In this document: positions 30,882 through 64,000 of the stretch, one piece after another | Position numbering within the stretch: the first letter of the stretch is position 1 | How the letters are laid out: the number at the start of each line of letters is the position of its first letter | Origin: Bacteroidota bacterium | GTDB taxonomy: Bacteria; Bacteroidota; Bacteroidia; 2-12-FULL-35-15 | Length of the DNA: 64,000 nucleotides | Assembly: GCA_040389865.1 (NCBI GenBank) | Contig: JAZJZM010000019.1 | Span: forward strand, 17,423 to 81,422 | Reading direction: 5' to 3' | Program-made: the position numbers and the translations under genes | The notes under the pieces: model-generated | Databases searched by the model: none | What the model was told of the DNA's origin: nothing | Seen by the model: the letters and a program-made list of their open reading frames with translations, nothing else

Positions 30882-31715
30882 TTAAGGATGAACTACAAAA
30901 ATTGGATATGTTGCTATTGCGCTTATTGTTGCTAATAATGGTTGTTTTCGAAAAAACCTTTCAAGAATATTTCTATGCCGTTCTTCCATCACTACCAGAT
31001 CTGTTTGGTTTTCGAGAATAAAATCATCAAGTGAGTCATCAATGTTGTCGGTGAAATTTATATCAACATTGTATTTTATTTTTCCATCTAATGATTTTTT
31101 TATTTCTTCTTTTATTCCGATGAATGCTTTTTGGCTCTTTTCATTATCTTCCTTGGTTAAAAACAAAAATGTAATTTGGGCCTCAAAAAAATTTGCAAAT
31201 TCATAAAACTGTTCCAGTGCGATACTATCTATCTTGTCAACTATAATTGGATAAAATATGTTTTTATACTTTTCAAACAAAAGGTCTTCCGGAACTATTA
31301 AAAGTGGACATTCTGACTCCTTGCTTGCTTTATATGTATTTGTGCCAAAAAAAAATTGTTTCAGATTATCCGGGCCATTAGTACCCATAACAATCATTGT
31401 GTTTTTCGTCACCGCTGATGCGATAGTTTTCGACAGGGATTTTGTAGTTATATCAACTTCATATGTTGTTGGGATATTATACATCTTGTTAATTTCAACA
31501 CTCATTTGTTTTAACTTATTCGAAACCTTGAGAGAGTTGTTTCGGATGTTACTGCCAACTCCCTCACCAAGACTTACCGCAGTTTCAAAATGAATTTGCT
31601 GTACATTAAATAATATCAGTTCTGCATTGATAACTTGAGCAAGCATTGCCGCGTATTCCGAAGCGTTGTTTGCTGAATCTGTAAAGTCAATAGGACAAAT
31701 AATTGTTGTTTTCAT
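30882..31715 (-). CDS. Universal stress protein, tandem UspA domains
   Basis: 'MKTTIICPIDFTDSANNASEYAAMLA..' and a second half 'KNIFYPIIVDKIDSIALEQF...LVVMEE' give two Usp-like alpha/beta units. Confidence 0.8.
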   Translation of the reverse strand: MKTTIICPIDFTDSANNASEYAAMLAQVINAELILFNVQQIHFETAVSLGEGVGSNIRNNSLKVSNKLKQMSVEINKMYNIPTTYEVDITTKSLSKTIASAVTKNTMIVMGTNGPDNLKQFFFGTNTYKASKESECPLLIVPEDLLFEKYKNIFYPIIVDKIDSIALEQFYEFANFFEAQITFLFLTKEDNEKSQKAFIGIKEEIKKSLDGKIKYNVDINFTDNIDDSLDDFILENQTDLVVMEERHRNILERFFRKQPLLATISAIATYPIFVVHP

Positions 31716-31733
31716 AAATAAGGAACATATTTA

Positions 31734-31894
31734 AGAGCCTGTTTAAATTTTATATAAAAGAATAACAATATTGCTTGTTGGAGCCATCCAATTCTCGACT
31801 CCGCTCGAAATGACCATGTGCGCTGGTATTTCGAGCGGAGTCGAGAAATCGTGTGAAGGCTGGAAACTGTTTGAATAAAATTTAAACAGGCTCT
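31734..31894. mobile_element. MITE-like element copy A (161 bp) with 20-bp terminal inverted repeats and a central 22-bp-stem hairpin
   Basis: The TIRs are 'agagcctgtttaaattttat' (31734-31753) and its reverse complement 'ataaaatttaaacaggctct' (31875-31894). The central 'aattctcgactccgctcgaaat'-gaccatgtgcgctggt-'atttcgagcggagtcgagaaat' is a perfect inverted repeat. Confidence 0.7.
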
Positions 31895-31928
31895 AAAAGG
31901 CTGAAAAATTATTGGCGTTTCTTATTCT

Positions 31929-32597
31929 TTAATAGACAAATACTTCTGTATCAATTTCAAGTTTGTTTTCAACAAGACCAATTCCTGGCGCTGACCAAGC
32001 TGCACGTGCTGCATCTCTTTTTTCAGCCCAAGAACGAACTTTTCCTGTTAGAATAACTTTGTTCCCAATTGTTTCTATGTTGATTTTTTCTGCATCAATT
32101 GTTGCGCTCCTGTGGAATGCAGAAACGATCTTTGTTTTTATTTCTCTTGCAGTGACCTGTGGTGTTACTTTTATATTATTACTTATTCCACGAACCCCCA
32201 ATAAATATTGTACTGCGCTGCTTGCTGCGTTTTTTTGAAATTCCCAATCGGTTTCTCCTTCTAGTGTTAACCACCCGTCTTCTACCTTTAATTTTATTTT
32301 TTCTTGTTGAACTGCGCTATGCCATTTTAGAGCGCTAATTGCGGCTTCGGCTATTTCTGTATCACTCTTTTTTCCATGCCCGGCTAATTTCACTTCAATA
32401 TCCACAGCAACTGCTTTTACTCCGGTAACTCTTTTGGTCGCTTTTTCTGCGGTTAGTTTTTTGGAATATGTATCTACTAGTCCAGAAAGGGTTACGACTC
32501 CGTTTTTTACTGCTACTCCAATTTCTGTAGCTTTCATTAATGGTTCCCATTTAAGTTCGTCCATAACATCTTTTTGAATTTCTGAATCTGTTCTCAT
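31929..32597 (-). CDS. BON-domain protein (two BON domains; OsmY-like)
   Basis: '[19 protein letters not shown]' is a typical family start. The BON units are '[36 protein letters not shown]' and '[41 protein letters not shown]'. The ORF is open upstream to 32654. Confidence 0.75.
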
Positions 32598-32785
32598 ACT
32601 TTTTTGTTTTTTTAATAATAAATATTTAAATAATTTTATGCAAAGTAAACTCATTATTGAAATCTATTCAATGATGAATTACAAAAAATGGAATGATCCA
32701 CATCACGAGTTTATTTTTTTTAATTGAAAATTTTATTTGATTCATGATACGGTAAATTTTCAGAAAAAAAAGGTTTAGGACTTTT

Positions 32786-37271: not shown

Positions 37272-40200
37272 ATGGCAAAGAGAAAAAAATCGGAGGAATT
37301 AATTATTGCCAACAAGGAACTTATCTTTCAAAATGAAGAGAAGGAAAAGCGGGCAGAAGAGTTAATTATTGCAAATATCGAACTTGCTTTTCAAGATGAA
37401 GAAAAAGAAAAACGTGCTGCGGAGTTAATTTTAGCTAACATAGAGTTAGCTTTTCAGGATGTGGAGAAAGAAAAAAGAGCGGCTGAATTAATTATTGCTA
37501 ACAAGGAACTTGTATTTCAAAACGCAGAGAAAGAAAAACGTGCGGCCGAGTTGATCATTGCTAATAAAGAACTTGTTTTTCAAAATGATGAGAAAGAAAA
37601 ACGGGCTGAGGAATTGATCGTTGCTAATAAAGAACTTGTTTTTCAGAATGATGAAAAAGAAAAACGTGCTGCGGAGTTGATCATTGCAAACAAAGAACTT
37701 GTTTTTCAAAACGATGAGAAAGAAAAACGTGCCGCTGAGCTGATCGTAGCTAACAAAGAACTTGCTTTTCAAAACGAAGAGAAAGAAAAACGTGCAGCCG
37801 AGTTAATTGTTGCTAATAAAGAACTTGTTTTTCAGAATGATGAAAAAGAAAAACGAGCTGCGGAGTTGATCATTGCAAACAAAGAACTTGTTTTTCAAAA
37901 CGATGAGAAAGAAAAACGTGCCGCTGAGCTGATCGTAGCTAACAAAGAACTTGCTTTTCAAAACGAAGAGAAAGAAAAACGTGCAGCCGAGTTAATTGTT
38001 GCTAACAAAGAACTTGCTTTTCAAAATGACGAGAAAGAAAAACGAGCGGCTGAGTTGCTCATCGCTAATAAAGAACTGATCTTTCAAAACGATGAGAAAG
38101 AAAAACGAGCGGCAGAGCTAATTGTAGCGAACAAAGAACTTGCTTTTCAAAATGATGAAAAAGAAAAACGTGCAGCCGAGTTATTCATAGCTAATAAAGA
38201 ACTTGTATTTCAAACCGGGGAAAAAGAAAAACGTGCCGCGGAGTTGGTAATAGCCGACATAGAGCTTGTTTTTCAAAATAAAGAAAAAGAAAAGCGCGAA
38301 ATCGCAAATAAAGAACTTGAAGCATTAAGTTATTCCGCAAAATTAGCATCTCAATATTCTCTTAGCCTGATTGAAGCAAGTCGGGATCCCTTAGTTACTA
38401 TCAGTACAGAAGGCAAGATCACTGATATGAATCAGGCAACTGTAAATATAACAGGCTTGACTCGTGAAAAACTTACGGGTACCGATTTTTTTGATTATTT
38501 CACCGAACCACAAAAGGCACGTGAAGTATATCAGGAAGTATTTGCGAAAGGATCTGTTGCCGATTCTCCGCTTACTCTTCGTCATAAAGCAGGGAAACTT
38601 ACTGATGTATTGTTCAATGGCTCGGTTTATAAAGATGATCAGGGAAATGTACTGGGAGTGGTGATCGTGGCGAGAGATGTTACTGCCCAAAAATTACTTT
38701 CTAAATATTCGTTAAGTCTTATTGAGGCAAGTCTTGATCCATTGGTTACGATAAGTACTGAAGGTAAGATCACGGATATGAATGAGGCCACTGCAAATAT
38801 TACCGGTATGAGCCGTGACCAATTAACGGGTACCGATTTTTTTGATTATTTCACCGAACCACAAAAGGCTCGTGAAGTTTATCTGGACGTGTTTGCGAAA
38901 GGTTCTGTTGCCGATTCTCCACTTACACTTCGTCATAAGGATGGGAAGCTTACGGATGTATTATTCAACGGATCGGTTTATAAAGACGACAGAGGGAATG
39001 TGCTTGGTGCCGTTGTGGTAGCAAGAGATATTACTGAACAAAAAAGAATAGCAACTGAATTGACTGAAGCGAAAATATTTGCCGAGTTGGCAACAGGTAT
39101 TGCGGAGGAAGCAAAAGCTAAAGCCGAAAGTGCCACACGAATAGCCGAAGATGCCGTGAAAGCGAAGCAACAATTTTTGTCAAACATGAGTCACGAAATT
39201 CGTACACCAATGAATGCGATCATTGGATTTACGAAAGTAGTATTAAAAACAGAGCTGTCGGTAAAACAAAAGGAATATTTGTCGGCCATAAAAATGAGTG
39301 GTGATGCATTGATCGTGCTCATTAACGATATACTCGATCTTGCTAAGGTAGATGCAGGAAAAATGTCCTTTGAGAAAACACCTTTCAAAATGAAAGCATC
39401 CATAGCATCCATGCTTCATTTGTTTGAGACAAAAATTCAGGAAAAGAATTTACAGCTTGTTAAGGAATACGACAATAAAATTCCTGATGTGTTAGTTGGC
39501 GATCCGGTTCGTTTACACCAGATCATATTAAATTTGGTGAGTAACGCTGTAAAGTTTACAACTTATGGAAAAATTACTGTAAGTGTTCATTTAGTGAGTG
39601 AGGACGAAGAAAAAGCAACCATTGAATTTGCAGTTATGGATACCGGGATTGGAATAGCGGAAAATAAAATAGAAAGAATCTTCGAAAACTTTCAGCAGGC
39701 AACCAGCGGCACTTCAAGATTATTTGGTGGAACAGGATTAGGACTTGCAATTGTTAAACAATTGGTAGAACCGCAAGGGGGAAGTCTTTTTGTAACAAGT
39801 AAAATTGATGAGGGTTCTACTTTTAGTTTTACGTTAACTTTTCAAAAAACAAAAGCGGAAGCCGAATTGGTAACTGAAGTTGCGGAATTGGATTCCGAAA
39901 TAAAAAATATAAAAGTATTGGTGGTGGAAGATATTGCACTCAATCAATTACTAATGAAAACATTGTTGGATGATTTCGGATTTGAACGCGATATTGCTGC
40001 AAATGGACAAATAGCCATCGAAAAATTGCAAGCTAAATCTTATGATATTATTTTGATGGACTTGCAAATGCCTGTAATGAATGGCTTTGAAGCTACCGAA
40101 TATATTCGTAATAAAATGAATTCTAAGATCCCGATCATCGCCTTAACTGCCGATGTAACTACAGTGGATCTGGCAAAATGCAAAGCGGTTGGCATGAATG

Positions 40201-40676
40201 ATTATATTGCAAAGCCTGTTGATGAAAGAGTATTATATAGTAAAATAGTGGGCCTGGTAAAAAAGCCTGTATTTGTTAATATCCAAAAGGAAAAAGAAAA
40301 CATTGAAACTGAGAAGTTAAAATGTATTGACCTGAAATATTTAAACCACCGCACAAAATCAAATCCAACAATAATGATGGAAATGATTTCACTTTATTTG
40401 GAGCAAACTCCACCTTTGATCAGCACAATGAAACAAAGTTTGTTGGATCAGGATTGGAATTCATTGCGCGCTGCAGTACATAAAATGATTCCCTCCTTTT
40501 CAATAATGGGCATTCATATAGATTTTGAAAATATGGCGAAAAAAGTTCAGGAGTATTCAAGTATCCAGGAACGAACGCATGAGATACATGACTTAGTGAT
40601 ACAGCTTGAAGATGTTTGTTTACAGGCATGTAAAGAGTTGGAAGAAGAATTTAATACGATTAAAAATAAGAAATAA
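37272..40676 (+). CDS. Hybrid sensor histidine kinase: 16 x 21-aa coiled-coil repeats, 2 PAS, HisKA, HATPase_c, REC, HPt
   Basis: Repeats 'ELIIANKELVFQNDEKEKRAA' x16. PAS blocks 'LIEASRDPLVTIS.EGKITDMN.AT.NITG'. H-box 'SHEIRTPMNAIIGF'. G2 box 'GGTGLGLAIVKQLVE'. REC 'ILMDLQMPVMNGFEAT'. HPt 'AVHKMIPSFSIMG'. Confidence 0.9.
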   Translation: MAKRKKSEELIIANKELIFQNEEKEKRAEELIIANIELAFQDEEKEKRAAELILANIELAFQDVEKEKRAAELIIANKELVFQNAEKEKRAAELIIANKELVFQNDEKEKRAEELIVANKELVFQNDEKEKRAAELIIANKELVFQNDEKEKRAAELIVANKELAFQNEEKEKRAAELIVANKELVFQNDEKEKRAAELIIANKELVFQNDEKEKRAAELIVANKELAFQNEEKEKRAAELIVANKELAFQNDEKEKRAAELLIANKELIFQNDEKEKRAAELIVANKELAFQNDEKEKRAAELFIANKELVFQTGEKEKRAAELVIADIELVFQNKEKEKREIANKELEALSYSAKLASQYSLSLIEASRDPLVTISTEGKITDMNQATVNITGLTREKLTGTDFFDYFTEPQKAREVYQEVFAKGSVADSPLTLRHKAGKLTDVLFNGSVYKDDQGNVLGVVIVARDVTAQKLLSKYSLSLIEASLDPLVTISTEGKITDMNEATANITGMSRDQLTGTDFFDYFTEPQKAREVYLDVFAKGSVADSPLTLRHKDGKLTDVLFNGSVYKDDRGNVLGAVVVARDITEQKRIATELTEAKIFAELATGIAEEAKAKAESATRIAEDAVKAKQQFLSNMSHEIRTPMNAIIGFTKVVLKTELSVKQKEYLSAIKMSGDALIVLINDILDLAKVDAGKMSFEKTPFKMKASIASMLHLFETKIQEKNLQLVKEYDNKIPDVLVGDPVRLHQIILNLVSNAVKFTTYGKITVSVHLVSEDEEKATIEFAVMDTGIGIAENKIERIFENFQQATSGTSRLFGGTGLGLAIVKQLVEPQGGSLFVTSKIDEGSTFSFTLTFQKTKAEAELVTEVAELDSEIKNIKVLVVEDIALNQLLMKTLLDDFGFERDIAANGQIAIEKLQAKSYDIILMDLQMPVMNGFEATEYIRNKMNSKIPIIALTADVTTVDLAKCKAVGMNDYIAKPVDERVLYSKIVGLVKKPVFVNIQKEKENIETEKLKCIDLKYLNHRTKSNPTIMMEMISLYLEQTPPLISTMKQSLLDQDWNSLRAAVHKMIPSFSIMGIHIDFENMAKKVQEYSSIQERTHEIHDLVIQLEDVCLQACKELEEEFNTIKNKK
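37296..38304 (+). repeat. 63-bp tandem repeat array (16 units) encoding a 21-aa (three-heptad) coiled-coil repeat
   Basis: Several units are identical over more than 120 bp, e.g. 37650-37780 and 37840-37970. Confidence 0.9.
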
Positions 40677-41433: not shown

Positions 41434-44400
41434 ATGAGATCGATCGCTACCACTAAAAAGAAGAAATCACCAACCAAAAAAAATGTTGAAGATCATTCTT
41501 TTCCTATCGTGGCTATTGGCGCTTCATTAGGTGGTTTAGAAGCGCTTACCTCTTTATTGAAAAATTTACCTTCCAATACCGGAATGGCATATATTTATGT
41601 GCAACACTTAAGCCCTGACCATAAAAGTTTACTAACTTCTATAGTATCCAAGATAACTAAAATGAAAGTTCAGGAGATAGAGGATATGGCGCACATGGCT
41701 CCGGATAATGTGTATGTGATCCCCTATAATAAAATAATTAAAGTTACTGACGGACACATTAAATTGCTTCCCCGTCCAAAAAGCAGTTCTGCCATTTCCA
41801 TTGATGTTCTGTTCTCGTCACTTGCTAAAACGCATAAAAAGAATGTTATTGGTGTGATCCTTTCTGGCAGCGGCACTGATGGTACAAACGGATTAAAAGC
41901 GATCAAAAAAGCGGGAGGAATGACAATTGCACAAGATGATTCCGCGCAAGCAAACAGTATGCCCAACTCGGCTATTGCCTCTAATGTTGTTGATTTTATT
42001 TTATCTCCTAAAGAAATTGCCGGGCATTTAGCAACATTTAGCAAAAATGATTTTTTGAAACCTGACCTTGAAAGTAAACAGAAAGAAGAAGTTAGTGAAA
42101 ATAGTAATCATGATCTGAAAACTATTTTCGGAATTTTATTTAAAAAAACCGGTGTGGACTTCAATCATTATAAGATGTCCACCATTAAAAGGCGATTGAA
42201 CAATAAAATGCTTCAATGCGGAGTAAAAACAGTAAAGGAATATGTAAAATTATTGCTCAAAAAAAACAGTGAGGTTGATCTTCTTTACAAGGATCTGCTT
42301 ATTAACGTAACTAGTTTTTATAGAGATAAGGACGCATTTCAGTATTTAAAAACAACCTTGTTTCCAAAGCTTCTTGAGGGTAAAGCACCGGGAGAAGTAA
42401 TTCGGATATGGATTCCAGCCTGCTCTACCGGTCAGGAAGCTTATTCCATTGCCATGATGCTGACTGAGCTGCAGGAAAATAAAAAAAAGAAAATACCTTT
42501 CCAGATCTTTGGTACCGATCTTAGCGATCAGGCAATTAGTGCTGCACGCAAAGCCGAATATTCGGCAAGTGATCTTATTCCTATTTCAAAGAAATTCAAA
42601 GATCGTTACTTTACTAAAACGGGTGACAACTACCGTATTGTTAAAGAGCTTCGCGAATTGTGTGTATTTGCTCCTCATAATATTCTGCGCGATCCACCTT
42701 TTTCACGTATGGATTTTATCAGTTGTCGCAATCTTCTTATTTATTTTGATTCTTCTGCACAGAAACGGGTTTTTTCAATCCTGCATTTTGCTTTGAATAA
42801 CCAGGGGAGTTTAATGCTTGGTCAAGCAGAAACGGTAGGCACGTCTTCTCAGCTTTTTATCACTACAAATGCTAAATTTAAGATTTACTCTCGTAAAAAG
42901 AGTACCGGAGTGAGGAAGATACTTGAATTAACACCACATTTTCCGCGTACAAATTTTTATAGTAAAAAAATAAACACACCTGTTAAAAGTTTGAGCGTAA
43001 ATTTAATGGGTGTTGAGAATGCTATTGATTCTGCTATTCTCTCAAAGTACATGCCTGCGTGTGCAGTTATAAACAAGGACATGGAAATTCTCCAGTTCAG
43101 AGGACCGATCTCTTTATTTCTCGCACATCCTTCCGGCAAAGCAAGTCTAAATATTTTAAAAATGACAAGACCTGAATTTGCCTTTGAACTTCGTAATGCA
43201 ATTCAAAAAGTAATAAAAACAAAACAGTCGGTGCAAAAAGCGGGCATCGAAATTAAGGTCGAGTCTGTTTTTCGTATGATGTCTTTGGAAGTTTCTCTTC
43301 TTAAGATTGATTGGGACGAGCCATTGCTACTTATTGTTTTTACATTACAGGAACAGGTTGAAAAATTTATTGAAATTGGTAATAGCGGGAAAAGCAATTC
43401 GATCCATGATGCCCAAAGAATAGTAAAGCTGACCGAGGAGTTGAACAATACCCGGATGGAAATAAATTCCATTATCGAATCGCAAGAAGCTACTTTCGAG
43501 GAATTACAAGCAGCCAATGAAGAAATTGTTTCAAGTAATGAAGAGTTTCAAACCTTAAATGAAGAACTTGAAACATCGAAAGAAGAAATTGAGACTACCA
43601 ATGAAGAGCTAATTTCTATCAATCAGGAATTACAAATGCGTAATGATCTTTTAACAGAATCGCATGAGTATTCGGAGGCCATCATTGCTACCATCCATGA
43701 GCCTATGCTTGTGCTAAACAAGGACTTTATTATACAATCCGCCAATAAATCGTATTATAAAAAATTTCTTGTTAAAAAAGAAGAAACGGAAAAGAAATTG
43801 TTTTTTGAATTAGGAAATAAGCAATGGAATATTCCAAAACTTCGTGAGGTGTTAAATGATATTCTTACCAAAAACAAGAGTTTTGAAAATTTTGAAGTGA
43901 CACATGCATTCCCGGGAATAGGCGAAAAAATAATGTTGCTTAATGCACATCTTGTCCTTCAAAAAGAGAACAGAGAACAACTAATTCTGCTTGCCATTGC
44001 TGATGTTTCCGAGTTAAGGAGATTGAGTATAGAGCTCAAAGTGAAAGACGCTAAAGTATTAAAAAACGAAGAGAAAGGGAAATGGGCGGCAGAGTTAGTT
44101 ATTGCCAACAAAGAACTTGCCTTTCAAAATGAGGAGAAAGAAAAACGAGCAGAGGAGTTGATCATTGCCAATAAAGAACTTGTTTTCCAGAACAATGAAA
44201 AAGAAAAACGTGCTGCGGAGTTGGTCATTGCAAACAAAGAACTTGCTTTTCAAAATGATGAAAAAGAAAAACGTGCTGCCGAGTTAGTAATTGCAAACAA
44301 AGAGCTTGCATTTCAAAACGAAGTGAAAGAAAAACGAGCTGCTGAGTTGGTTATTGCAAACAAAGAACTTGCTTTTCAAAATGATGAGAAGGAGAAACGT

Positions 44401-46944
44401 GCAGCCGAGTTAGTTATTGCAAACAAAGAACTTTTATTTCAGGCAGGCGAGAAAGAAAAACGAGCAGCCGAGTTAGCCATTGCAAAAATAGAACTTGACT
44501 TTCAAAATAAAGAGAAAGAAAAACGGGAAATTGTAAATAAAGAACTTGAAGCGTTCAGTAATGCAACTAAATTAGCATCTCAATATTCTCGAAGTTTGAT
44601 CGAAGCAAGTTTAGATCCGCTTGTTACTATCAGTGCAGAAGGAAAGATATTGGATGTAAATAATGCATCGATAAAAGTGACGGGTGTTCCACGTGATAAA
44701 CTCATTGGCACTGATTTCTCCCGTTATTTTACAGAACCATTAAAAGCACAAGAAGGCTATAAGCAGGTTTTTGAAAAAGGATCTGTGTCGGATTATCCTT
44801 TAACAATAAAACATAAAAATGGAAACTTAACGGATGTATTGTACAATGCATCTGTTTATAAAGATGAGAAAGGTAATGTTCTTGGAGTTTTTGCTGCTGC
44901 ACGTGATATAACCGAACAAAAAAGAATTGAAGTTGATCTGGGTAAAAGTTTAAAGGAAATTTCGGATTACAAATATGCACTTGATGAATTTTCTATTGTT
45001 GCCATCACAGACCAGAAGGGAATTATCAAACATGCAAATGACAACTTTTGCAAAGTTTCAAAATTCACGAGAGAGGAATTAATAGGCGCGGATCATCGCA
45101 TTATTAATTCCGGCCATCATCCGAAAGAATTTATCAATGATTTATGGACAACAATTGCCAATGGCGGGATTTGGAGAGGTGAATTAAAAAATGCGGCAAA
45201 GGATGGAACTATTTATTGGGTGAATACTACTATTGTTCCTTTCCTGAATGAACAAGGAAAACCTTACCAGTATGTTGCAGTAAGAACGGACATTACCGAT
45301 CAAAAAAGAATAGAAACAGAATTGATAGAAGCAAAAGTGTTTGCTGAGTTGGCAACCGGTATTGCAGAAGAAGCCCAGAGCAAGGCGGAAAGCGCTACAT
45401 TAATAGCTGAAGATGCGGTGAAAGCGAAACAGCAGTTTTTATCAAACATGAGTCATGAAATCCGCACACCAATGAATGCGATCATTGGATTTACCAAAGT
45501 GGTATTGAAAACAGATCTAACGACAAAACAAAAGGAATATCTTTCAGCGATAAAAATGAGTGGTGATGCATTGATCGTACTTATAAACGATATCCTTGAT
45601 TTGGCAAAGGTAGATGCAGGCAAAATGACATTTGAGAAAACACCTTTCAAAATGGAGTCTTCCATTTCAGCGATGCTCCATTTGTTTGAGACAAAAATTC
45701 AGGAAAAGAATTTGGAATTAGTTAAAAAATACGATAGTAATATTCCTCAAGTGTTAATAGGTGACCCGGTTCGCCTGCATCAGATCATTTTAAATTTGGT
45801 GAGTAATGCAGTGAAATTTACAACAAAAGGGAAAATTACTGTTAGTGTTCTTCTATTAACTGAAGATGAAAATAATGCAAGCCTGGAATTTGCGGTTTCG
45901 GATACCGGAATAGGCATAGATGGAAACAAAATAGAACATATTTTTGAAAATTTTCAGCAAGCTTCAAGCAGCACTTCAAGGTTGTTTGGTGGGACAGGTT
46001 TAGGCTTGGCCATTGTAAAACAATTGGTAGAACCTCAGGGAGGTAGCATTAGGGTGAAAAGTAAAATTGGTGAAGGTTCTACTTTTAGTTTTATATTAAA
46101 TTTTCAAAAAACAAAGGCTGAAGCAGAATTAGAAACAGAAATGCTGGAGTTGGATACTGAGATCAAAAACATAAAAGTATTAGTGGTTGAAGATATTCCA
46201 CTTAATCAACTATTGATGAAAACACTATTGGATGATTTTGGATTTGAACGTGATATCGCTTCAAATGGAAAAATTGCCATCGAAAAGCTGCAAACTAAAT
46301 CGTATGATATTATTTTGATGGATCTGCAGATGCCTGAAATGAATGGATTTGAAGCAACAGAATACATTCGTAATAAAATGAATTCTAAGATCCCTATTAT
46401 GGCTTTAACGGCCGATGTGACCACCGTTGATCTGGAAAAGTGCAGAGCCGTTGGGATGAACGATTACATTGCAAAACCCGTTGATGAAAAATTATTGTAC
46501 AGTAAAATAATTAGTTTAGTAAAAAAGCGAATGCCTTTAAAAACGAAGGAATCTATTGGAAATGAAAATAATTTCAATGAAAAATTAAAATGCACTGACC
46601 TGAAATATTTAATAAAACGCACAAAAAATAGTCCGAAATTAATGATGGAAATGATCTCACTTTATTTGGAACAAACTCCACCTTTAATCAACTCAATGAA
46701 AAAAAGCGTGCAGGATAAAGATTGGGATTCGCTATACGCAGCAGTGCATAAAATGATACCATCCTTTTCAATAATGGGTATGAGTATTGATATTGAAAAT
46801 ACAGCAAAAAGAGTTCAGGAATACGCAGGTACAAAACAACGAACTGAAGAAATTTCAGGCTTGGTTTTACATCTCGAAAAAGTTTGTGCACAAGCATGTA
46901 AAGAATTGGAACTGGACTATACGAATTTTAAAAATGCTGGCTAG
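41434..46944 (+). CDS. CheB methylesterase - CheR methyltransferase fusion to a PAS/hybrid histidine kinase (1,836 aa)
   Basis: CheB motifs 'IVAIGASLGGLEAL' and 'ILSGSGTDGTNGLKAIKKAGGMTIAQD'. CheR SAM-site motif 'IRIWIPACSTGQEAYSIAMML'. An 'EEL(Q/E)(S/T).NEEL' heptad linker. 7 x 21-aa repeats. 3 PAS. H-box 'SHEIRTPMNAIIGF'. HATPase_c, REC, HPt. Confidence 0.9.
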   Translation: MRSIATTKKKKSPTKKNVEDHSFPIVAIGASLGGLEALTSLLKNLPSNTGMAYIYVQHLSPDHKSLLTSIVSKITKMKVQEIEDMAHMAPDNVYVIPYNKIIKVTDGHIKLLPRPKSSSAISIDVLFSSLAKTHKKNVIGVILSGSGTDGTNGLKAIKKAGGMTIAQDDSAQANSMPNSAIASNVVDFILSPKEIAGHLATFSKNDFLKPDLESKQKEEVSENSNHDLKTIFGILFKKTGVDFNHYKMSTIKRRLNNKMLQCGVKTVKEYVKLLLKKNSEVDLLYKDLLINVTSFYRDKDAFQYLKTTLFPKLLEGKAPGEVIRIWIPACSTGQEAYSIAMMLTELQENKKKKIPFQIFGTDLSDQAISAARKAEYSASDLIPISKKFKDRYFTKTGDNYRIVKELRELCVFAPHNILRDPPFSRMDFISCRNLLIYFDSSAQKRVFSILHFALNNQGSLMLGQAETVGTSSQLFITTNAKFKIYSRKKSTGVRKILELTPHFPRTNFYSKKINTPVKSLSVNLMGVENAIDSAILSKYMPACAVINKDMEILQFRGPISLFLAHPSGKASLNILKMTRPEFAFELRNAIQKVIKTKQSVQKAGIEIKVESVFRMMSLEVSLLKIDWDEPLLLIVFTLQEQVEKFIEIGNSGKSNSIHDAQRIVKLTEELNNTRMEINSIIESQEATFEELQAANEEIVSSNEEFQTLNEELETSKEEIETTNEELISINQELQMRNDLLTESHEYSEAIIATIHEPMLVLNKDFIIQSANKSYYKKFLVKKEETEKKLFFELGNKQWNIPKLREVLNDILTKNKSFENFEVTHAFPGIGEKIMLLNAHLVLQKENREQLILLAIADVSELRRLSIELKVKDAKVLKNEEKGKWAAELVIANKELAFQNEEKEKRAEELIIANKELVFQNNEKEKRAAELVIANKELAFQNDEKEKRAAELVIANKELAFQNEVKEKRAAELVIANKELAFQNDEKEKRAAELVIANKELLFQAGEKEKRAAELAIAKIELDFQNKEKEKREIVNKELEAFSNATKLASQYSRSLIEASLDPLVTISAEGKILDVNNASIKVTGVPRDKLIGTDFSRYFTEPLKAQEGYKQVFEKGSVSDYPLTIKHKNGNLTDVLYNASVYKDEKGNVLGVFAAARDITEQKRIEVDLGKSLKEISDYKYALDEFSIVAITDQKGIIKHANDNFCKVSKFTREELIGADHRIINSGHHPKEFINDLWTTIANGGIWRGELKNAAKDGTIYWVNTTIVPFLNEQGKPYQYVAVRTDITDQKRIETELIEAKVFAELATGIAEEAQSKAESATLIAEDAVKAKQQFLSNMSHEIRTPMNAIIGFTKVVLKTDLTTKQKEYLSAIKMSGDALIVLINDILDLAKVDAGKMTFEKTPFKMESSISAMLHLFETKIQEKNLELVKKYDSNIPQVLIGDPVRLHQIILNLVSNAVKFTTKGKITVSVLLLTEDENNASLEFAVSDTGIGIDGNKIEHIFENFQQASSSTSRLFGGTGLGLAIVKQLVEPQGGSIRVKSKIGEGSTFSFILNFQKTKAEAELETEMLELDTEIKNIKVLVVEDIPLNQLLMKTLLDDFGFERDIASNGKIAIEKLQTKSYDIILMDLQMPEMNGFEATEYIRNKMNSKIPIMALTADVTTVDLEKCRAVGMNDYIAKPVDEKLLYSKIISLVKKRMPLKTKESIGNENNFNEKLKCTDLKYLIKRTKNSPKLMMEMISLYLEQTPPLINSMKKSVQDKDWDSLYAAVHKMIPSFSIMGMSIDIENTAKRVQEYAGTKQRTEEISGLVLHLEKVCAQACKELELDYTNFKNAG
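44087..44535 (+). repeat. 63-bp tandem repeat array (7 units); paralogous to 37296-38304
   Basis: 'AELVIANKELAFQNEEKEKRA' units. The nucleotide sequence is near-identical to the repeat units of the first kinase. Confidence 0.9.
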
Positions 46945-48139: not shown

Positions 48140-48189
48140 TGTGAACGCTTTACAAAATTAATATTATTTTCGATCAAATATTTGTAATT

Positions 48190-48272
48190 GATTACAGGCA
48201 TCGCATCTCTTCTTGAAAAGACCTGATCGCAGTCATTTCGAGCCTGTCGAGAAACGCGCGTTAGCTTTCAAT
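48190..48272. repeat. ~80-bp direct repeat, copy 1 (core-repeat family, 'tcatttcgagc...cgagaaacg' type)
   Basis: 'caggcatcgcatctcttcttgaaaagacctgatcgcagtcatttcgagcctgtcgagaaacgcgcgttagctttca'. Confidence 0.8.
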
Positions 48273-48317
48273 GGTGAAGTTATAATGGCTCCAAAGTCAA
48301 TGCGCGCTGACATCTTG

Positions 48318-48397
48318 TGCTGATTGCAGGCATCTCTTCTTGAAAAGGCCCGTGCGCAGTCATTTCGAGCCTGTCGAGAAACGTGCGTTCGCTTTCA
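48318..48397. repeat. ~80-bp direct repeat, copy 2 (~90% identical to 48190-48272)
   Basis: 'caggcatctcttcttgaaaaggcccgtgcgcagtcatttcgagcctgtcgagaaacgtgcgttcgctttca'. It lies in the divergent rlmF/PLD intergenic region. Confidence 0.8.
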
Positions 48398-48476
48398 TAG
48401 GAATTTTTTATTTGGTCAAATAAAATTTAAGATGCTCCTAAAGATTTCATTATTTTTACAATTAGATAAAACCCAC

Positions 48477-50003: not shown

Positions 50004-50098
50004 CCAACATTTCAGCAACCTCTGTCATTCCGGGCTTTTTCGCGAGGGATCTTGTTCTTGAATTACAAATCGTTAATGGTTGACAAGTGACCATTAAA

Positions 50099-50465: not shown

Positions 50466-50518
50466 CTTAATTAATTTTTAATTTCGTTTTTTTACTTTAC
50501 CTTACTTCTTTCGAAAGC

Positions 50519-50580
50519 ATTGTGTGCGCTATCATTTCGAGCAAGGTTAAGAAAGCGCGTTTGCCTTCAAAAGCAATTTA
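50519..50580. repeat. Core-repeat family copy (solo)
   Basis: 'tgtgcgctatcatttcgagcaaggttaagaaagcgcgtttgccttcaaaagcaat' is ~80% identical to the internal part of MITE copy B at 54432-54594. Confidence 0.65.
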
Positions 50581-50609
50581 TTGTTTCTTGTTGAAAATGT
50601 GTCAAATCA

Positions 50610-52439: not shown

Positions 52440-52787
52440 AATACAAATTTTAAAAATATTATTTGGATAGCCCAATTTATCGGATCAATGGTTTTTAACC
52501 AAATAAGATCTTATCAAGCTCAAGCTCTTATGCATCTAATTTACAACAATTTTTAAAATGGACATTTAAAATAAAATAAAAGCTTCAAGTTGTTTAATGT
52601 TCAATATCTATAAAGCGATTACTTTATTAAAAGGAATGTGTGTTTTTGAAATGAAAACGATGCGGAAAATTCAGGAGATCTTTTTGAAGGTTTTTCGAAA
52701 ACAGAAAAAGCTCCCAAAGTGTTGATTTTCTATAAAATGCAGTTTTTATTCACAATTTTAATATTGTTTAATCAGAAGTGAATTTCT

Positions 52788-53759: not shown

Positions 53760-54077
53760 ATGAACGAAAGAGATTTTCAACCAACAAACGGAAATATTGT
53801 AAAGGCTTTACTTGCTAATCAAAAACTTGTACTTGTTGGTATTCAAAAGAAAATTCAAAATTTACATTCCGATTCTGCAAACAGCGGATTCCTTCAACAA
53901 CTTCTCAACGAAGCAGGTCAATTAATTAAATTATCTGATAAAGACGCTGGAACCAAGATCAGGGAATATGCCGAGGAATTGGATTTTTATTTAAACGGTG
54001 GATCTGACGATTTGACGAAATTTTATCATTGTAAGGCTGAAGCACTTACCATTATTGCTAAGCAGGTTGGTGCGTAA
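53760..54077 (+). CDS. Hypothetical protein (105 aa)
   Basis: Intact ORF with its own terminator 120 bp downstream. Confidence 0.45.
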   Translation: MNERDFQPTNGNIVKALLANQKLVLVGIQKKIQNLHSDSANSGFLQQLLNEAGQLIKLSDKDAGTKIREYAEELDFYLNGGSDDLTKFYHCKAEALTIIAKQVGA

Positions 54078-54234: not shown

Positions 54235-54431
54235 ACTCTTTGATCCCGCTGAGGCATTCGAATCTCTTTCTGAATAGCCTGTAATTACTATCTTTTAATC
54301 ATTTTCTAAGAACTTTGGTGAAGTAATAGCGAATTGCTCCTTTTTTATCAGTTTTGATTATTATCATACAACCAGAACAAAGATATAATTCAACTCTTTA
54401 TAAAATTAATGGCAAAGACTTTAATTGTATA

Positions 54432-54594
54432 AGAGCCTGTTTAAATTTTATTCAAAATGGTTTTTTGCCTTCGCTCTATTTCTAGTCTCCACTCAAAATG
54501 ACCATGTGCGCTGTCATTTCGAGCGATTCGAGAAAGGTGCATTAGCTTTGTAAGCAATATTGTTATTCTTTTATATAAAATTTAAACAGGCTCT
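54432..54594. mobile_element. MITE-like element copy B (163 bp); its arms are inverted relative to copy A
   Basis: It carries the same 20-bp TIRs 'agagcctgtttaaattttat' ... 'ataaaatttaaacaggctct'. The arm 'caagcaatattgttattctt' is the reverse complement of copy A's 'aagaataacaatattgcttg'. The central hairpin is degenerate ('ctccactcaaaatgaccatgtgcgctgtcatttcgagcgattcgagaaa'). Confidence 0.7.
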
Positions 54595-55149
54595 AACAAG
54601 ATGGAATTATTTTTGGAACCTCAAGTCAATTTGCACACAAAATAAAAGGAGTTAAAAAAAAGTAAATGAACAACTTATGACAATTTAGGCAAAGACATTT
54701 GGTACCCATTGCTAGAATATTTACTTTTTCTATTTTCATTTATTTCTAATGTAAAAATAGACAAATATAGATGCTGGTTTCTGAAACGTGTATGCCATGT
54801 TTTTAGAGATAAAAATGGGTGTTTTTACGGATATCAATTGATTTTATATATTGTATCATTGAGCTTTAAAATAATTTTTGAAATTTAATTAACCCTCATT
54901 CTTAAAAATTATCTATTCTTTACAAAGGAATAGATATGAACGAACAACATTTTTTTTTAGTTCTATGAGATTTTTGATTTTTAACAAAAACTAAACTTTT
55001 CTTACATGGTAATGTATTTGTGATTTTTGATAAAATCGGAGAAAAAAAAGTATTTATTTTTAACGTGATTTAAATGCATATCATTACAAAAAAGCAGTAA
55101 TAGCTTTTTTCGAAGCATTTGCATAAATATTAATTATTACTAATTCAGC

Positions 55150-55590
55150 ATGAGTTATAACTTAAAAAAAATGGAATTAAAAAAAGCTGGTTCGAAATAC
55201 CAATCGGTTATGATTGTTGATGATTGTGAAATTGATAATTATATTAATGAAATTATAATTAAAAAGGCTGGCTTTGCTGAGAATGTTTATAAACATAGCG
55301 GAGCTTTGGGGTCATTAGAGTTTTTAAAAAATATAGCAATGCTTAACTATACTGATCTTGATTTATTACCATCGGTTCTCTTTTTAGACATCAACATGCC
55401 TGTTTTAGATGGTTTTCAATTCCTTGATGAACTTAATAATTTTCCAACACAATTAAATAGAAAAATTAAAATTGTAATACTTTCTTCCTCCGCAAACCCT
55501 TCTGATATAAAAAAAGCAAGTCAATATAAACAAGTTGTCAAATTTCTTCATAAGCCTCTTACGAAAGAGGATTTGTACAACTTAAATTAA
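55150..55590 (+). CDS. Single-domain response regulator (REC)
   Basis: 'SVMIVDDCEIDN', 'FLDINMPVLDGFQFL' and 'VVKFLHKPL'. Confidence 0.8.
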   Translation: MSYNLKKMELKKAGSKYQSVMIVDDCEIDNYINEIIIKKAGFAENVYKHSGALGSLEFLKNIAMLNYTDLDLLPSVLFLDINMPVLDGFQFLDELNNFPTQLNRKIKIVILSSSANPSDIKKASQYKQVVKFLHKPLTKEDLYNLN

Positions 55591-61653: not shown

Positions 61654-64000
61654 ATGAACTGCAGTCCAATCAAATATATATATACTCAAATTCCATTCAA
61701 TAGAAGTTTTGTTAAGCAACAAAAGCAAACGCTGCGTTTTTTAACAAATGCAATTTGTTTATTTTTTATTGTTATTTTATTTCAACAAAAAGCAATTGGA
61801 CAAAACCTTGGTATTAATACTACAGGCGCATTACCTGATTCATCGGCTATGCTCGATATCATAAGCCCTAATAAAGGATTGCTTATTCCAAGAATTAGTT
61901 TAACATCTACTACAGACGCTACTACTATTGCAAACCCCGCTATTTCATTGTTAGTGTATAATAACAATGTTTCTATGATCGGTGGAGGCTTAGGTTTTTG
62001 GTATTGGAATGGAACACAATGGGTACAGGCAATTGGCCCTGTGGGGGCTACTGGTTCAACAGGAGCAACGGGAGCTGACGGAATATTTGGAACAACTGGT
62101 GAAACGGGTACTGCTGGCTCAAATGGAAGTACAGGTTCAACAGGTGTAACTGGTGCTGAAGGAATAATAGGAGCAACCGGAGAGACAGGTTCTGCTGGAA
62201 CAAATGGAGCTATAGGTTCAACTGGTGCAACTTCAAATACAGGTGCAACAGGCAGTACAGGTTCAACAGGTTCTACGTCTAATACAGGTTCAACAGGTAG
62301 TACAGGCTCTACAGGTTCAACATCTAACACAGGTTCAACTGGAGCAACAGGAAGTAGTTCAACAGGTGCGACTGGTTCAACTGGTTTCACATCAAACACA
62401 GGTTCAACAGGAATTACCGGCTCAACCGGTTCCACTTCAAATACAGGAGCAACAGGAAGCACTGGCTCAACTGGTTCAACCGGGAGGACTGGCTCAACCG
62501 GTTCAACAGCTAACACAGGGTCTACGGGAGAAACTGGGACAACAGGTGCGACCGGCTCAACCGGTTCTACCTCAAATACAGGGTCAACAGGAAGCACAGG
62601 ATCAACTGGTTCAACATCTAATACTGGTTCAACAGGAAGCACAGGTTCAACATCAAATACCGGATCGACTGGGGCTACAGGTTCAACCGGTTCTACGTCC
62701 AATACGGGGGCAACAGGAAGCACAGGATCAACCGGTTCCACTTCAAATACAGGAACAACAGGAAGTACCGGTTCGACTGGTTCAACAGCTAACACTGGTT
62801 CAACAGGAGCAACGAGTTCAACAGGAAAGACAGGATCAACGGGCTCAACCGGTTCTACTTCAAATACAGGAACCACTGGCTCTACTGGTTCTACATCTAA
62901 TACCGGTTCCACGGGCGCGACAGGTTCAACAGGGACTACGTCAAATACGGGTTCAACAGGAAGTACAGGTTCAACTGGCTCGACATCAAATACAGGAGCA
63001 ACTGGGACAACAGGTGCGACCGGCTTAACCGGTTCAACAGCCAACACCGGTTCAACCGGTTCTACTTCAAATACAGGTGCAACAGGAAGTACAGGTTCAA
63101 CAGCTAACACAGGTTCAACGGGATCAACTGGTTCCACTTCAAATACAGGATCAACTGGAAGTACCGGCTCAACAGGAGCAACTGGAGCAACCGGTTCTAC
63201 TGGTGCTACTTCAAATACAGGTTCGACCGGAAGAACCGGTTCAACAGCTAGCACGGGTTCCACTGGCGCAACAGGTTCTACAGGGACAACAGGAAGTACC
63301 GGTTCAACTGGTTCAACAGCTAACACAGGGTATACAGGAGCAACTGGGACAACAGGTGCGACCGGTTCTACCTCAAATACAGGAACAACAGGAAGTACCG
63401 GCTCGACTGGTTCAACAGCTAACACAGGTTCTACCGGTGCGACCGGCTCAACAGGTTCAACAGCTAACACCGGTTCATCGGGATCAACGGGTTCCACTTC
63501 AAATACGGGATCAACAGGAAGTACTGGCTCTACCGGTTCTACAGGAGCAACTGGTTCTACTGGTGCTACTGGAACTACTTCAAATACAGGTGCAACAGGA
63601 AGTACCGGCTCGACTGGTTCAACAGCTAACACTGGTTCAACTGGAGCAACGAGTTCTACAGGTTCAACAGGAAGGACAGGGTCAACTGGTTCAACGGGTT
63701 CTACTTCAAATACAGGAACCACTGGAAATACCGGTTCCACAGGCTCAACCGGTTCTACATCTAATACAGGTTCAACAGGTGCGACCTCTAATACCGGTTC
63801 AACGGGAGCAACTGGAAGTAGTTCTACTGGTGCTACCGGTTCAACTGGCTCGACATCAAATACAGGTGCAACAGGAAGCACAGGCTCAACGGGTTCGACC
63901 TCTAATACCGGTTCAACGGGAGCAACTGGAAGTAGTTCTACTGGTGCTACCGGTTCAACTGGCTCGACATCAAATACAGGTGCAACAGGAAGCACAGGCT
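61654..64000 (+). CDS. Second giant collagen-like fibre protein, 5' part (paralog of 1629-13307); it runs off the window
   Basis: ATG 61654 follows a TAA at 61636-38. The N-terminal module '[68 protein letters not shown]' is about 60% identical to the first gene's module. It is followed by G-X-T triplets with regular 'STSNTG'/'STANTG' Gly-to-Ser interruptions. The six-frame track omitted it because there is no stop inside the window. Confidence 0.85.

Follow-up and report, generated by a model that had tools for sequence, protein, structure and literature searches.

The stretch of DNA analysed here (the window, 64,000 nucleotides from a Bacteroidota bacterium) contains two copies of a short element with inverted terminal repeats, referred to as copy A and copy B. 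Copy A lies in the spacer between a BON-domain gene (31929-32654, minus strand) and a gene for a tandem-Usp protein (30882-31715, minus strand), whose start codon is 18 nt away. Copy B is located within the 1.07-kb gap that separates 53760-54077 from 55150-55590; an exact-protein look-up for the response regulator gene that adjoins it returned no record. Both copies are intergenic, and the longest ORF crossing either of them is at most 43 aa, in agreement with the original prediction of a non-coding, intergenic element of about 160 bp.

Several other repeats are present in the window. A giant ORF of 3892 aa (1629-13307, plus strand) consists largely of G-x-T triplets, with a 9-nt periodicity over about 6 kb, and looks like a collagen-like repeat protein. 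A similar repeat is found at the other end of the window (61782-63995, minus strand). Two ORFs of 1134 and 1836 aa (37272-40676 and 41434-46944) carry arrays with a 63-nt (21-aa) period, which cross-match each other and one of the relatives considered below (L135; loci outside the window are cited by L numbers).

The 20-mer AGAGCCTGTTTAAATTTTAT, which the prediction had named as the perfect terminus of both copies, occurs exactly four times in the window (31734 and 54432 on the plus strand, 31875 and 54575 on the minus strand), as two inward-facing pairs and against a chance expectation of 0.04. Not all of the 20-mer belongs to the element. Both copies read TAA, then GAGCC...GGCTC, then TAA, and the first A of the 20-mer is part of the duplicated TAA, which sets the limits of the element proper as given in Table 1. 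The terminal inverted repeats are exact over 19 nt and 92% identical over 25-26 nt. The arms of copy B were said to be the reverse complement of those of copy A, and so they are: the left 43 nt of A correspond to the right 43 nt of B, and the right 25 nt of A to the left 25 nt of B, in each case as a 100% reverse complement. The claim that the central loop reads in the same direction in both copies is equally correct, with CATGTGCGCTG on the plus strand at 31815 (A) and at 54503 (B).

The interior of the element is a long imperfect palindrome, free of genes, centered on a 20-bp-stem hairpin built on the motif CTCGACTCCGCTCGAAATGAC. A perfect stem of 22 bp with a 16-nt loop had been described for copy A; the loop is as described, and the perfect stem comprises 20 bp. 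The stem of copy B is degenerate (11 nt at 91%). Folded as single-stranded DNA, both copies are far more stable than shuffled sequences (z = -11.6 for A and -5.9 for B). When eight hairpin cores were folded jointly with RNAalifold, the consensus was limited to the 13 inner pairs and covariation was nearly absent, as indels in the outer stem misalign the sequences, and this result carries no information for or against selection on structure.

Table 1 Positions of the element, its parts and its relatives in the window
Feature	Position	Strand	Remarks
Copy A	31735-31893	+	159 bp, GAGCC...GGCTC; 43-nt arm left; spacer forward; nhmmer 166 bits on +, 76 on -
Target-site duplication TAA of copy A	31732-31734 (left); 31894-31896 (right)
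Central hairpin of copy A	31792-31847		perfect 20-bp arms 31792-31811 / 31828-31847; 16-nt spacer GACCATGTGCGCTGGT
Copy B	54433-54593	-	161 bp; opposite insertion; spacer reverse; stem degenerate; nhmmer 149.8 bits on -, 54.3 on +
Flanking TAA of copy B	54430-54432 and 54594-54596
Third copy	1249-1408 by alignment (nhmmer 1251-1404)	+	near full length, degenerate; E = 5.3e-12, profile 4-159; decayed termini AAACTTGTTTAAAC ... AAATTTAACAGTTCC
Partial copy	48334-48430	-	left arm, left stem, spacer; E = 8.8e-9; first unit of two-unit tandem duplication upstream of cls
Second unit of the tandem duplication upstream of cls	48202-48269	-	E = 8.5e-4
Fragment	50504-50588	-	left arm, left stem, spacer; E = 3.1e-6; between CDGSH and DUF349 genes; orthologous place in L137 also has a fragment
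Family copies with the same spacer reading on the G-rich strand	1249, 31735, 48202, 48334, 50504, 54433	+

Further copies and their occurrence in relatives

An nhmmer profile built from five full copies and run on the window raises the total within these 64 kb to six copies or fragments, at least four of them beyond A and B (Table 1). Upstream of cls, the window (48170-48445) has two tandem units of the left half-element (arm, left stem and spacer) with a 127-nt period; their core motifs are at 48232 and 48359, 127 nt apart. This 127-nt duplication at 48.2-48.4 kb was left unscored by Tandem Repeats Finder and is visible only by the profile combined with alignment. A relative (L135 5485-5922) presents 4-5 tandem units of the left half-element, of about 80 nt each. 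Such tandem half-units amount to a variable minisatellite within a MITE, an arrangement also described in P. gingivalis for BrickBuilt.

Scanning of metagenomes with 20 nt of the subterminal arm identified six further members (L120, L123, L124, L125, L126 and L127). Homology between the loci is confined to the stretch from terminus to terminus, and the flanks are unrelated; the copy at L120 2395-2557, for example, is 89.6% identical to window 31734-31894 over 163 nt. A Logan contig with an identical Usp gene, the only such contig on record, stops 26 nt inside copy A, and contigs L123, L126 and L135 also terminate inside copies, which is the behavior of a multi-copy repeat in short-read assemblies. 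The possibility that only the two copies exist, which would speak against a MITE, is thus not borne out: many more are present, both in the window and at unrelated metagenome loci.

Comparison with relatives provides insights on presence and absence at orthologous sites. The Usp protein of the window has a 100% identical counterpart in a 'Bacteroidota bacterium' MAG at NCBI, and relatives encode it at 79-90% identity. In four of these relatives (L130-L134) the BON and Usp genes are collinear and the spacer is devoid of the MITE (window 31716-31928 compared with L130 3683-4000, L131/L132 3874-4000 and L134 3872-4000). Their spacer contains the intrinsic terminator AAAAAAACGGATATTTTATAAAATCCGTTTTTTTT plus a further 60 nt or so; this stretch of about 75 nt is missing from the window, and copy A occupies its position. 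A clean empty site, with the flanks joined over a single TWA, was found at none of the loci compared; at BON-Usp the flanks of the relatives differ by about 75 nt. As regards the search for empty sites proposed with the original prediction, the element is absent from the orthologous spacer, and the flanks there do not join over one TWA; judged from these sequences, the pattern would fit either an insertion plus a deletion, or simply divergence. The canonical terminator of the relatives is accompanied by a presumed promoter region. Both are gone in the window, so that transcription of Usp would either continue from BON or begin within the element.

Around cls, where the nucleotide identity is 86-89%, the relatives share the fragments upstream of cls and in the CDGSH-DUF349 spacer. 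An extra copy is found in L135 18 nt after cls, where the window has none, and a full copy in L137 after DUF349, where the window has other sequence. The L137 region orthologous to copy B is too diverged to align and holds a degenerate copy of a sister subfamily, and so offers no clean empty site. At window 52583-52610 (compared with L137 4446-4475) a decayed terminus-like stretch, CAAGTTGTTTAATGTTCAATATC, is found where L137 has the left terminus of its full copy, and beyond it the window has two small ORFs in about 1 kb. The terminus-like stretch may be an old copy that was disrupted or replaced.

Termini of an IS5-family insertion sequence

A scan of one genome per species with the 19-mer GAGCCTGTTTAAATTTTAT revealed at least 117 loci, nearly all of them in Bacteroidota among the matches listed (for example Chryseobacterium, Flavobacterium, Tenacibaculum, Dysgonomonas, Bacteroides and Niabella, and also Sphingobacteriaceae), and many about 100 nt from a contig end. 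The interior of the window element is common to none of these genome loci, and viral contigs scanned with two interior patterns gave 0 matches. When inward-facing end pairs were sought with three mismatches allowed, two size classes were observed. The first class, of 855-863 bp (L050, L072, L083 and L105), encloses a single ORF of about 255-265 aa, which scores 174.9 bits against NCBIfam NF033580 'IS5 family transposase' (cut-off 110) and contains the Pfam domains DUF4096 (PF13340) and DDE_Tnp_1 (PF01609). The right 23 nt of the window MITE, TTGAATAAAATTTAAACAGGCTC, recur without a mismatch at the right end of these elements, in which they encode the C-terminus of the transposase (..LNKI-stop). 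Many of the matches at contig ends encode this same C-terminus, and they are IS copies at which assemblies broke. The second class, of 144-250 bp, presents many unrelated non-coding interiors in different genomes and consists of other MITE families on the same ends.

Hairpin repeats on the motifs ..CG(A/C)AATGAC / GTCATT(C/T)CG.. are common in these Bacteroidota (window 50030-50075, L136 5240-5340, L052 1322-1487 and L116 2419-2592). They are seen free-standing and also inside unrelated MITEs with the same IS5 ends, and the core hairpin may be a more ancient module that spreads on its own.

The flanks of the end pairs define the target. Among the loci listed, TNA is present on both sides in 39 of 54 end pairs, with identical trinucleotides in 35 of the 54 (TTA/TTA in 16 and TAA/TAA in 14). 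Single ends abut TTA or TAA in 163 of 205 cases; the background frequency of TNA in the same DNA is 0.089 per site. A target duplication of 3 bp, TWA, is strongly supported, and both window copies are flanked by TAA/TAA, which answers the search for target-site duplications suggested with the prediction.

A tblastn search found no gene for this transposase in the window, nor in about 75 kb of sequence of close relatives. The earlier statement that no transposase adjoins either copy in the window is confirmed and, for a transposase matching the ends, extends to the whole of it, and the transposase with matching ends that was to be looked for is found in other Bacteroidota, in the four loci of the 855-863-bp class. 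With no partner found in the window or in these 75 kb, mobilization in trans in this genome is putative. By tblastn against plasmids, the best annotated relative of the transposase (Bacteroides fragilis) is only 46% identical. The ISfinder IS1031-like subgroup of IS5 is defined by a length of 850-1050 bp, a single ORF, ends GAG and a 3-bp TNA duplication. On its sequence the partner would match this subgroup, with about 860 bp, one ORF, ends GAG, TNA flanks and an NF033580 transposase; the distance of its nearest annotated plasmid relative sets it apart.

Orientation of the spacer

Copies were oriented by their arms, and the spacer, read off by eye, was compared with CATGTGCGCT and its reverse complement. 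Fragments and tandem duplicates included, eight spacers are forward, ten are reverse and two are ambiguous. Forward spacers are those of the full copies A, L120, L124, L125 and L137_4452 and of the truncated copy L123. Reverse spacers are those of B, of L127_888, of the short variant L135_5820, of the half-unit fragments and of the L137 copy at about 5440-5640. The spacers of A and B are exact reverse complements, and a second reverse-complement pair, on a different spacer variant, is formed by L123 (CAGGTGCGCG) and L127_888 (AGCGCGCCTG). With the spacer excluded, identity is 78.8% between B and L127_888, which are both reverse, and 84-86% between L127_888 and forward copies. The two clearly flipped full-length copies are therefore not each other's closest relatives, and the state has changed more than once.

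The original prediction had offered a flip-flop around the hairpin or an independent insertion orientation, and both are seen. The opposite arm orientation of A and B is simply insertion in opposite orientation; in addition, the inversion of the spacer relative to the arms is real and arose independently in B and in L127. When read by eye, MITE families that combine these ends with short stems, in Niabella (161 bp) and in Im510_bin53 (191 bp), present plain reverse-complement copies with no flip. Spacer inversion is a recurrent by-product of the long inverted repeat and not a transposition mechanism.

Comparable spacer inversions are the mini-inversions in hairpins of chloroplast DNA. Template switching between the arms of an inverted repeat inverts spacers, homogenizes arms, is reversible and prefers long arms (PMC8604942, PMC8794818), and loop inversions have been reported in bacterial rRNA hairpins (PMC8794818). 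DNA-polymerase template switching between the long hairpin arms would be the likeliest cause of the inversions seen here, and it would account for the perfection of the 20-bp arms in copy A as well. The features in common with the published cases are an exact reverse-complement spacer between otherwise collinear arms, arms that are long (and perfect in copy A), and a state that recurs and appears reversible. While those cases concern orthologous single loci (PMC8604942, PMC8794818), ours concern paralogous copies of a mobile element. Spacer states spread over paralogous copies fix neither the direction nor the number of the events, and template switching and other arm-to-arm recombination would leave the same sequence.

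The spacer was also considered relative to the strand. GC skew is positive throughout the window, and in all five independent window copies or fragments, in either insertion direction, the plus strand reads ...TGCGC(T/A)-GTCATTTCGAG. The same rule applies in L135, L124 and L125 relative to their own G-rich strand, while L123, L127 and one L137 copy are exceptions to it. That the spacer state is set by the direction of replication (or transcription) and is not random would be a tentative and, on these small numbers, rather unlikely proposal. If it were true, this MITE family would have a hairpin that is strand-polar, with one state maintained either through template switching with a strong replication bias or through selection for an oriented motif.

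Identity of the element and alternative explanations

The element is very probably a non-autonomous IS5-family MITE, mobilized in trans and inserted at TWA, whose spacer has been inverted in some copies by template switching between the arms. The termini, the TWA duplication, the copies at unrelated loci, the presence and absence among relatives (including the absence from their BON-Usp spacer) and the breaks in assemblies jointly argue for a MITE that would be mobilized in trans, and the MITE reading of the original prediction gains further support from the additional copies and from the IS5-family elements with the same ends. The 19-25-bp termini would be those of the approximately 860-bp insertion sequence that is widespread in Bacteroidota. 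By analogy with the family, a transposase supplied in trans would bind these termini and excise or copy the element, which would then be inserted at a TWA trinucleotide with duplication of the latter. A and B would represent two such insertions, in opposite orientations. The 10-11-nt spacer between the hairpin arms would have been inverted in some copies by template switching, or by other recombination, between the long arms during replication. The ends are 100% identical while the interiors are about 80% identical, and we assume selection on the putative transposase-binding ends.

The two spacer states could have arisen in other ways. Removal of ACA from CATGTGCGCACATG gives the CATGTGCGCTG of copy A and removal of TGT gives its reverse complement, so alternative 3-nt deletions in a perfect-palindrome ancestor (GAC-CATGTGCGCACATG-GTC) would produce both, and some spacers, for example CATGCGCACA and CATGCGCGCG, are indeed intermediate or ambiguous. 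However, the full palindromic center is present in none of about 20 spacers, and one and the same exact loss of 3 nt would be needed in both CATG-type and CAGG-type spacers (L123 versus L127_888), whereas inversion requires one well-documented event type. Independent assembly of the copies around a hairpin module inserted either way would agree with the occurrence of the core motif GCTCGAAATGAC without the second arm, and within different MITEs that share these ends (L052 and L116). We consider it improbable that deletion or assembly of this kind accounts for the spacer states. A programmed switch in which a site-specific invertase flips the spacer, or a REP/BIME-type unit spread by a RAYT (Y1) transposase, is the least credible of the explanations and is hardly to be expected. 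The repeat is centered on a hairpin and frequent in intergenic DNA, and Bacteroidota are rich in invertible DNA, but a spacer of 10-16 nt is far too short for the synapsis of a recombinase. REPs have neither terminal inverted repeats nor a target duplication, whereas the element has both, with 19-25-bp terminal repeats identical to those of a DDE insertion sequence. Gene lists of the window and of the relatives' loci show no transposase-like or recombinase-like gene beside any copy examined.

A conserved structured regulatory element (an RNA hairpin, a terminator or a leader) that is not mobile would be in line with the very stable folding of copies A and B, with the position of copy A, which occupies the site of the BON terminator of the relatives, 18 nt ahead of the Usp start, and with a weak, sub-threshold Rfam match to TwoAYGGAY. 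Against it, no Rfam family reaches its gathering score in the whole window, and copy B matches nothing. The copies stand beside unrelated genes in both orientations, the orthologous site of the relatives lacks the element, and both the termini and the target duplication are those of an insertion sequence. No T-run follows the hairpin on either strand, and a terminator scan finds none in the element. A regulatory element of this type is very unlikely; a secondary effect of the MITE on neighboring transcripts is possible.

Two specific candidates are rejected. One was an intrinsic terminator, which would have a T-run directly after the hairpin. The other was membership of Rfam RF01731 (TwoAYGGAY), as the match attains 33.4 bits versus a gathering score of 43, the defining AYGGAY-loop interior is unmatched, and copy B gives no match. 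A permissive Rfam search gave only hairpin-type chance matches in addition to this one, and 18 other terminus-bearing loci gave nothing. The outer stem of the RF01731 model (UAGAUACUCUUAAAUUUUC...) aligns to the MITE terminus and the flanking TA (window 31720-31908, minus strand), which suggests that the TwoAYGGAY 'RNA' may itself be carried by a MITE whose IS5-type end is related.

The IS5-family MITE proposed here has its closest counterparts in P. gingivalis (MITEPgRS/MITE464 and BrickBuilt; PMC4596501). These are likewise non-coding elements of Bacteroidota in which only the ends resemble the parent, and their termini, GAGAC(T/C)..TTGCA, are common to the resident IS5-family elements (PMC4596501). 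BrickBuilt also contains an internal minisatellite (PMC4596501), to which the tandem half-units at window 48170-48445 and L135 5485-5922 are comparable. In contrast, the terminus differs (GAGCCTGTTTAAATTTTAT in our family), the interior is unrelated, the target duplications of BrickBuilt are inconsistent, compared with the strongly supported TWA seen here, and spacer inversion is undescribed for the P. gingivalis MITEs (PMC4596501). A more distant likeness is to the eukaryotic Tourist MITEs and PIF-Harbinger elements, which are short and mobilized in trans by a transposase of an IS5-related superfamily with 3-bp TAA/TTA duplications; both the 3-bp duplications of Harbinger and its relationship to IS5 are documented (PMC12730594). 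These elements differ in being eukaryotic, in an autonomous partner that needs a second, Myb-like protein, and in having no sequence relationship to ours. The literature searched for the terminus and the core motif as text gave no relevant paper; papers on a Cardinium MITE and on Riemerella are unrelated to the element.

The element had been called novel. The family, IS5-derived MITEs of an uncultured Bacteroidota lineage, is indeed new; its kind is well known. The repeat breaks assemblies of this lineage and is worth masking or annotating, and it points to a small IS5-family element that is widespread in Bacteroidota and apparently unnamed. Placed 18 nt before the Usp ATG, copy A may have rewired Usp transcription. 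As a multi-copy hairpin with a 20-bp stem, the family provides many natural replicates of spacer inversion in one genome, and these replicates could serve to measure the rate and the strand bias of template switching in an uncultured bacterium.
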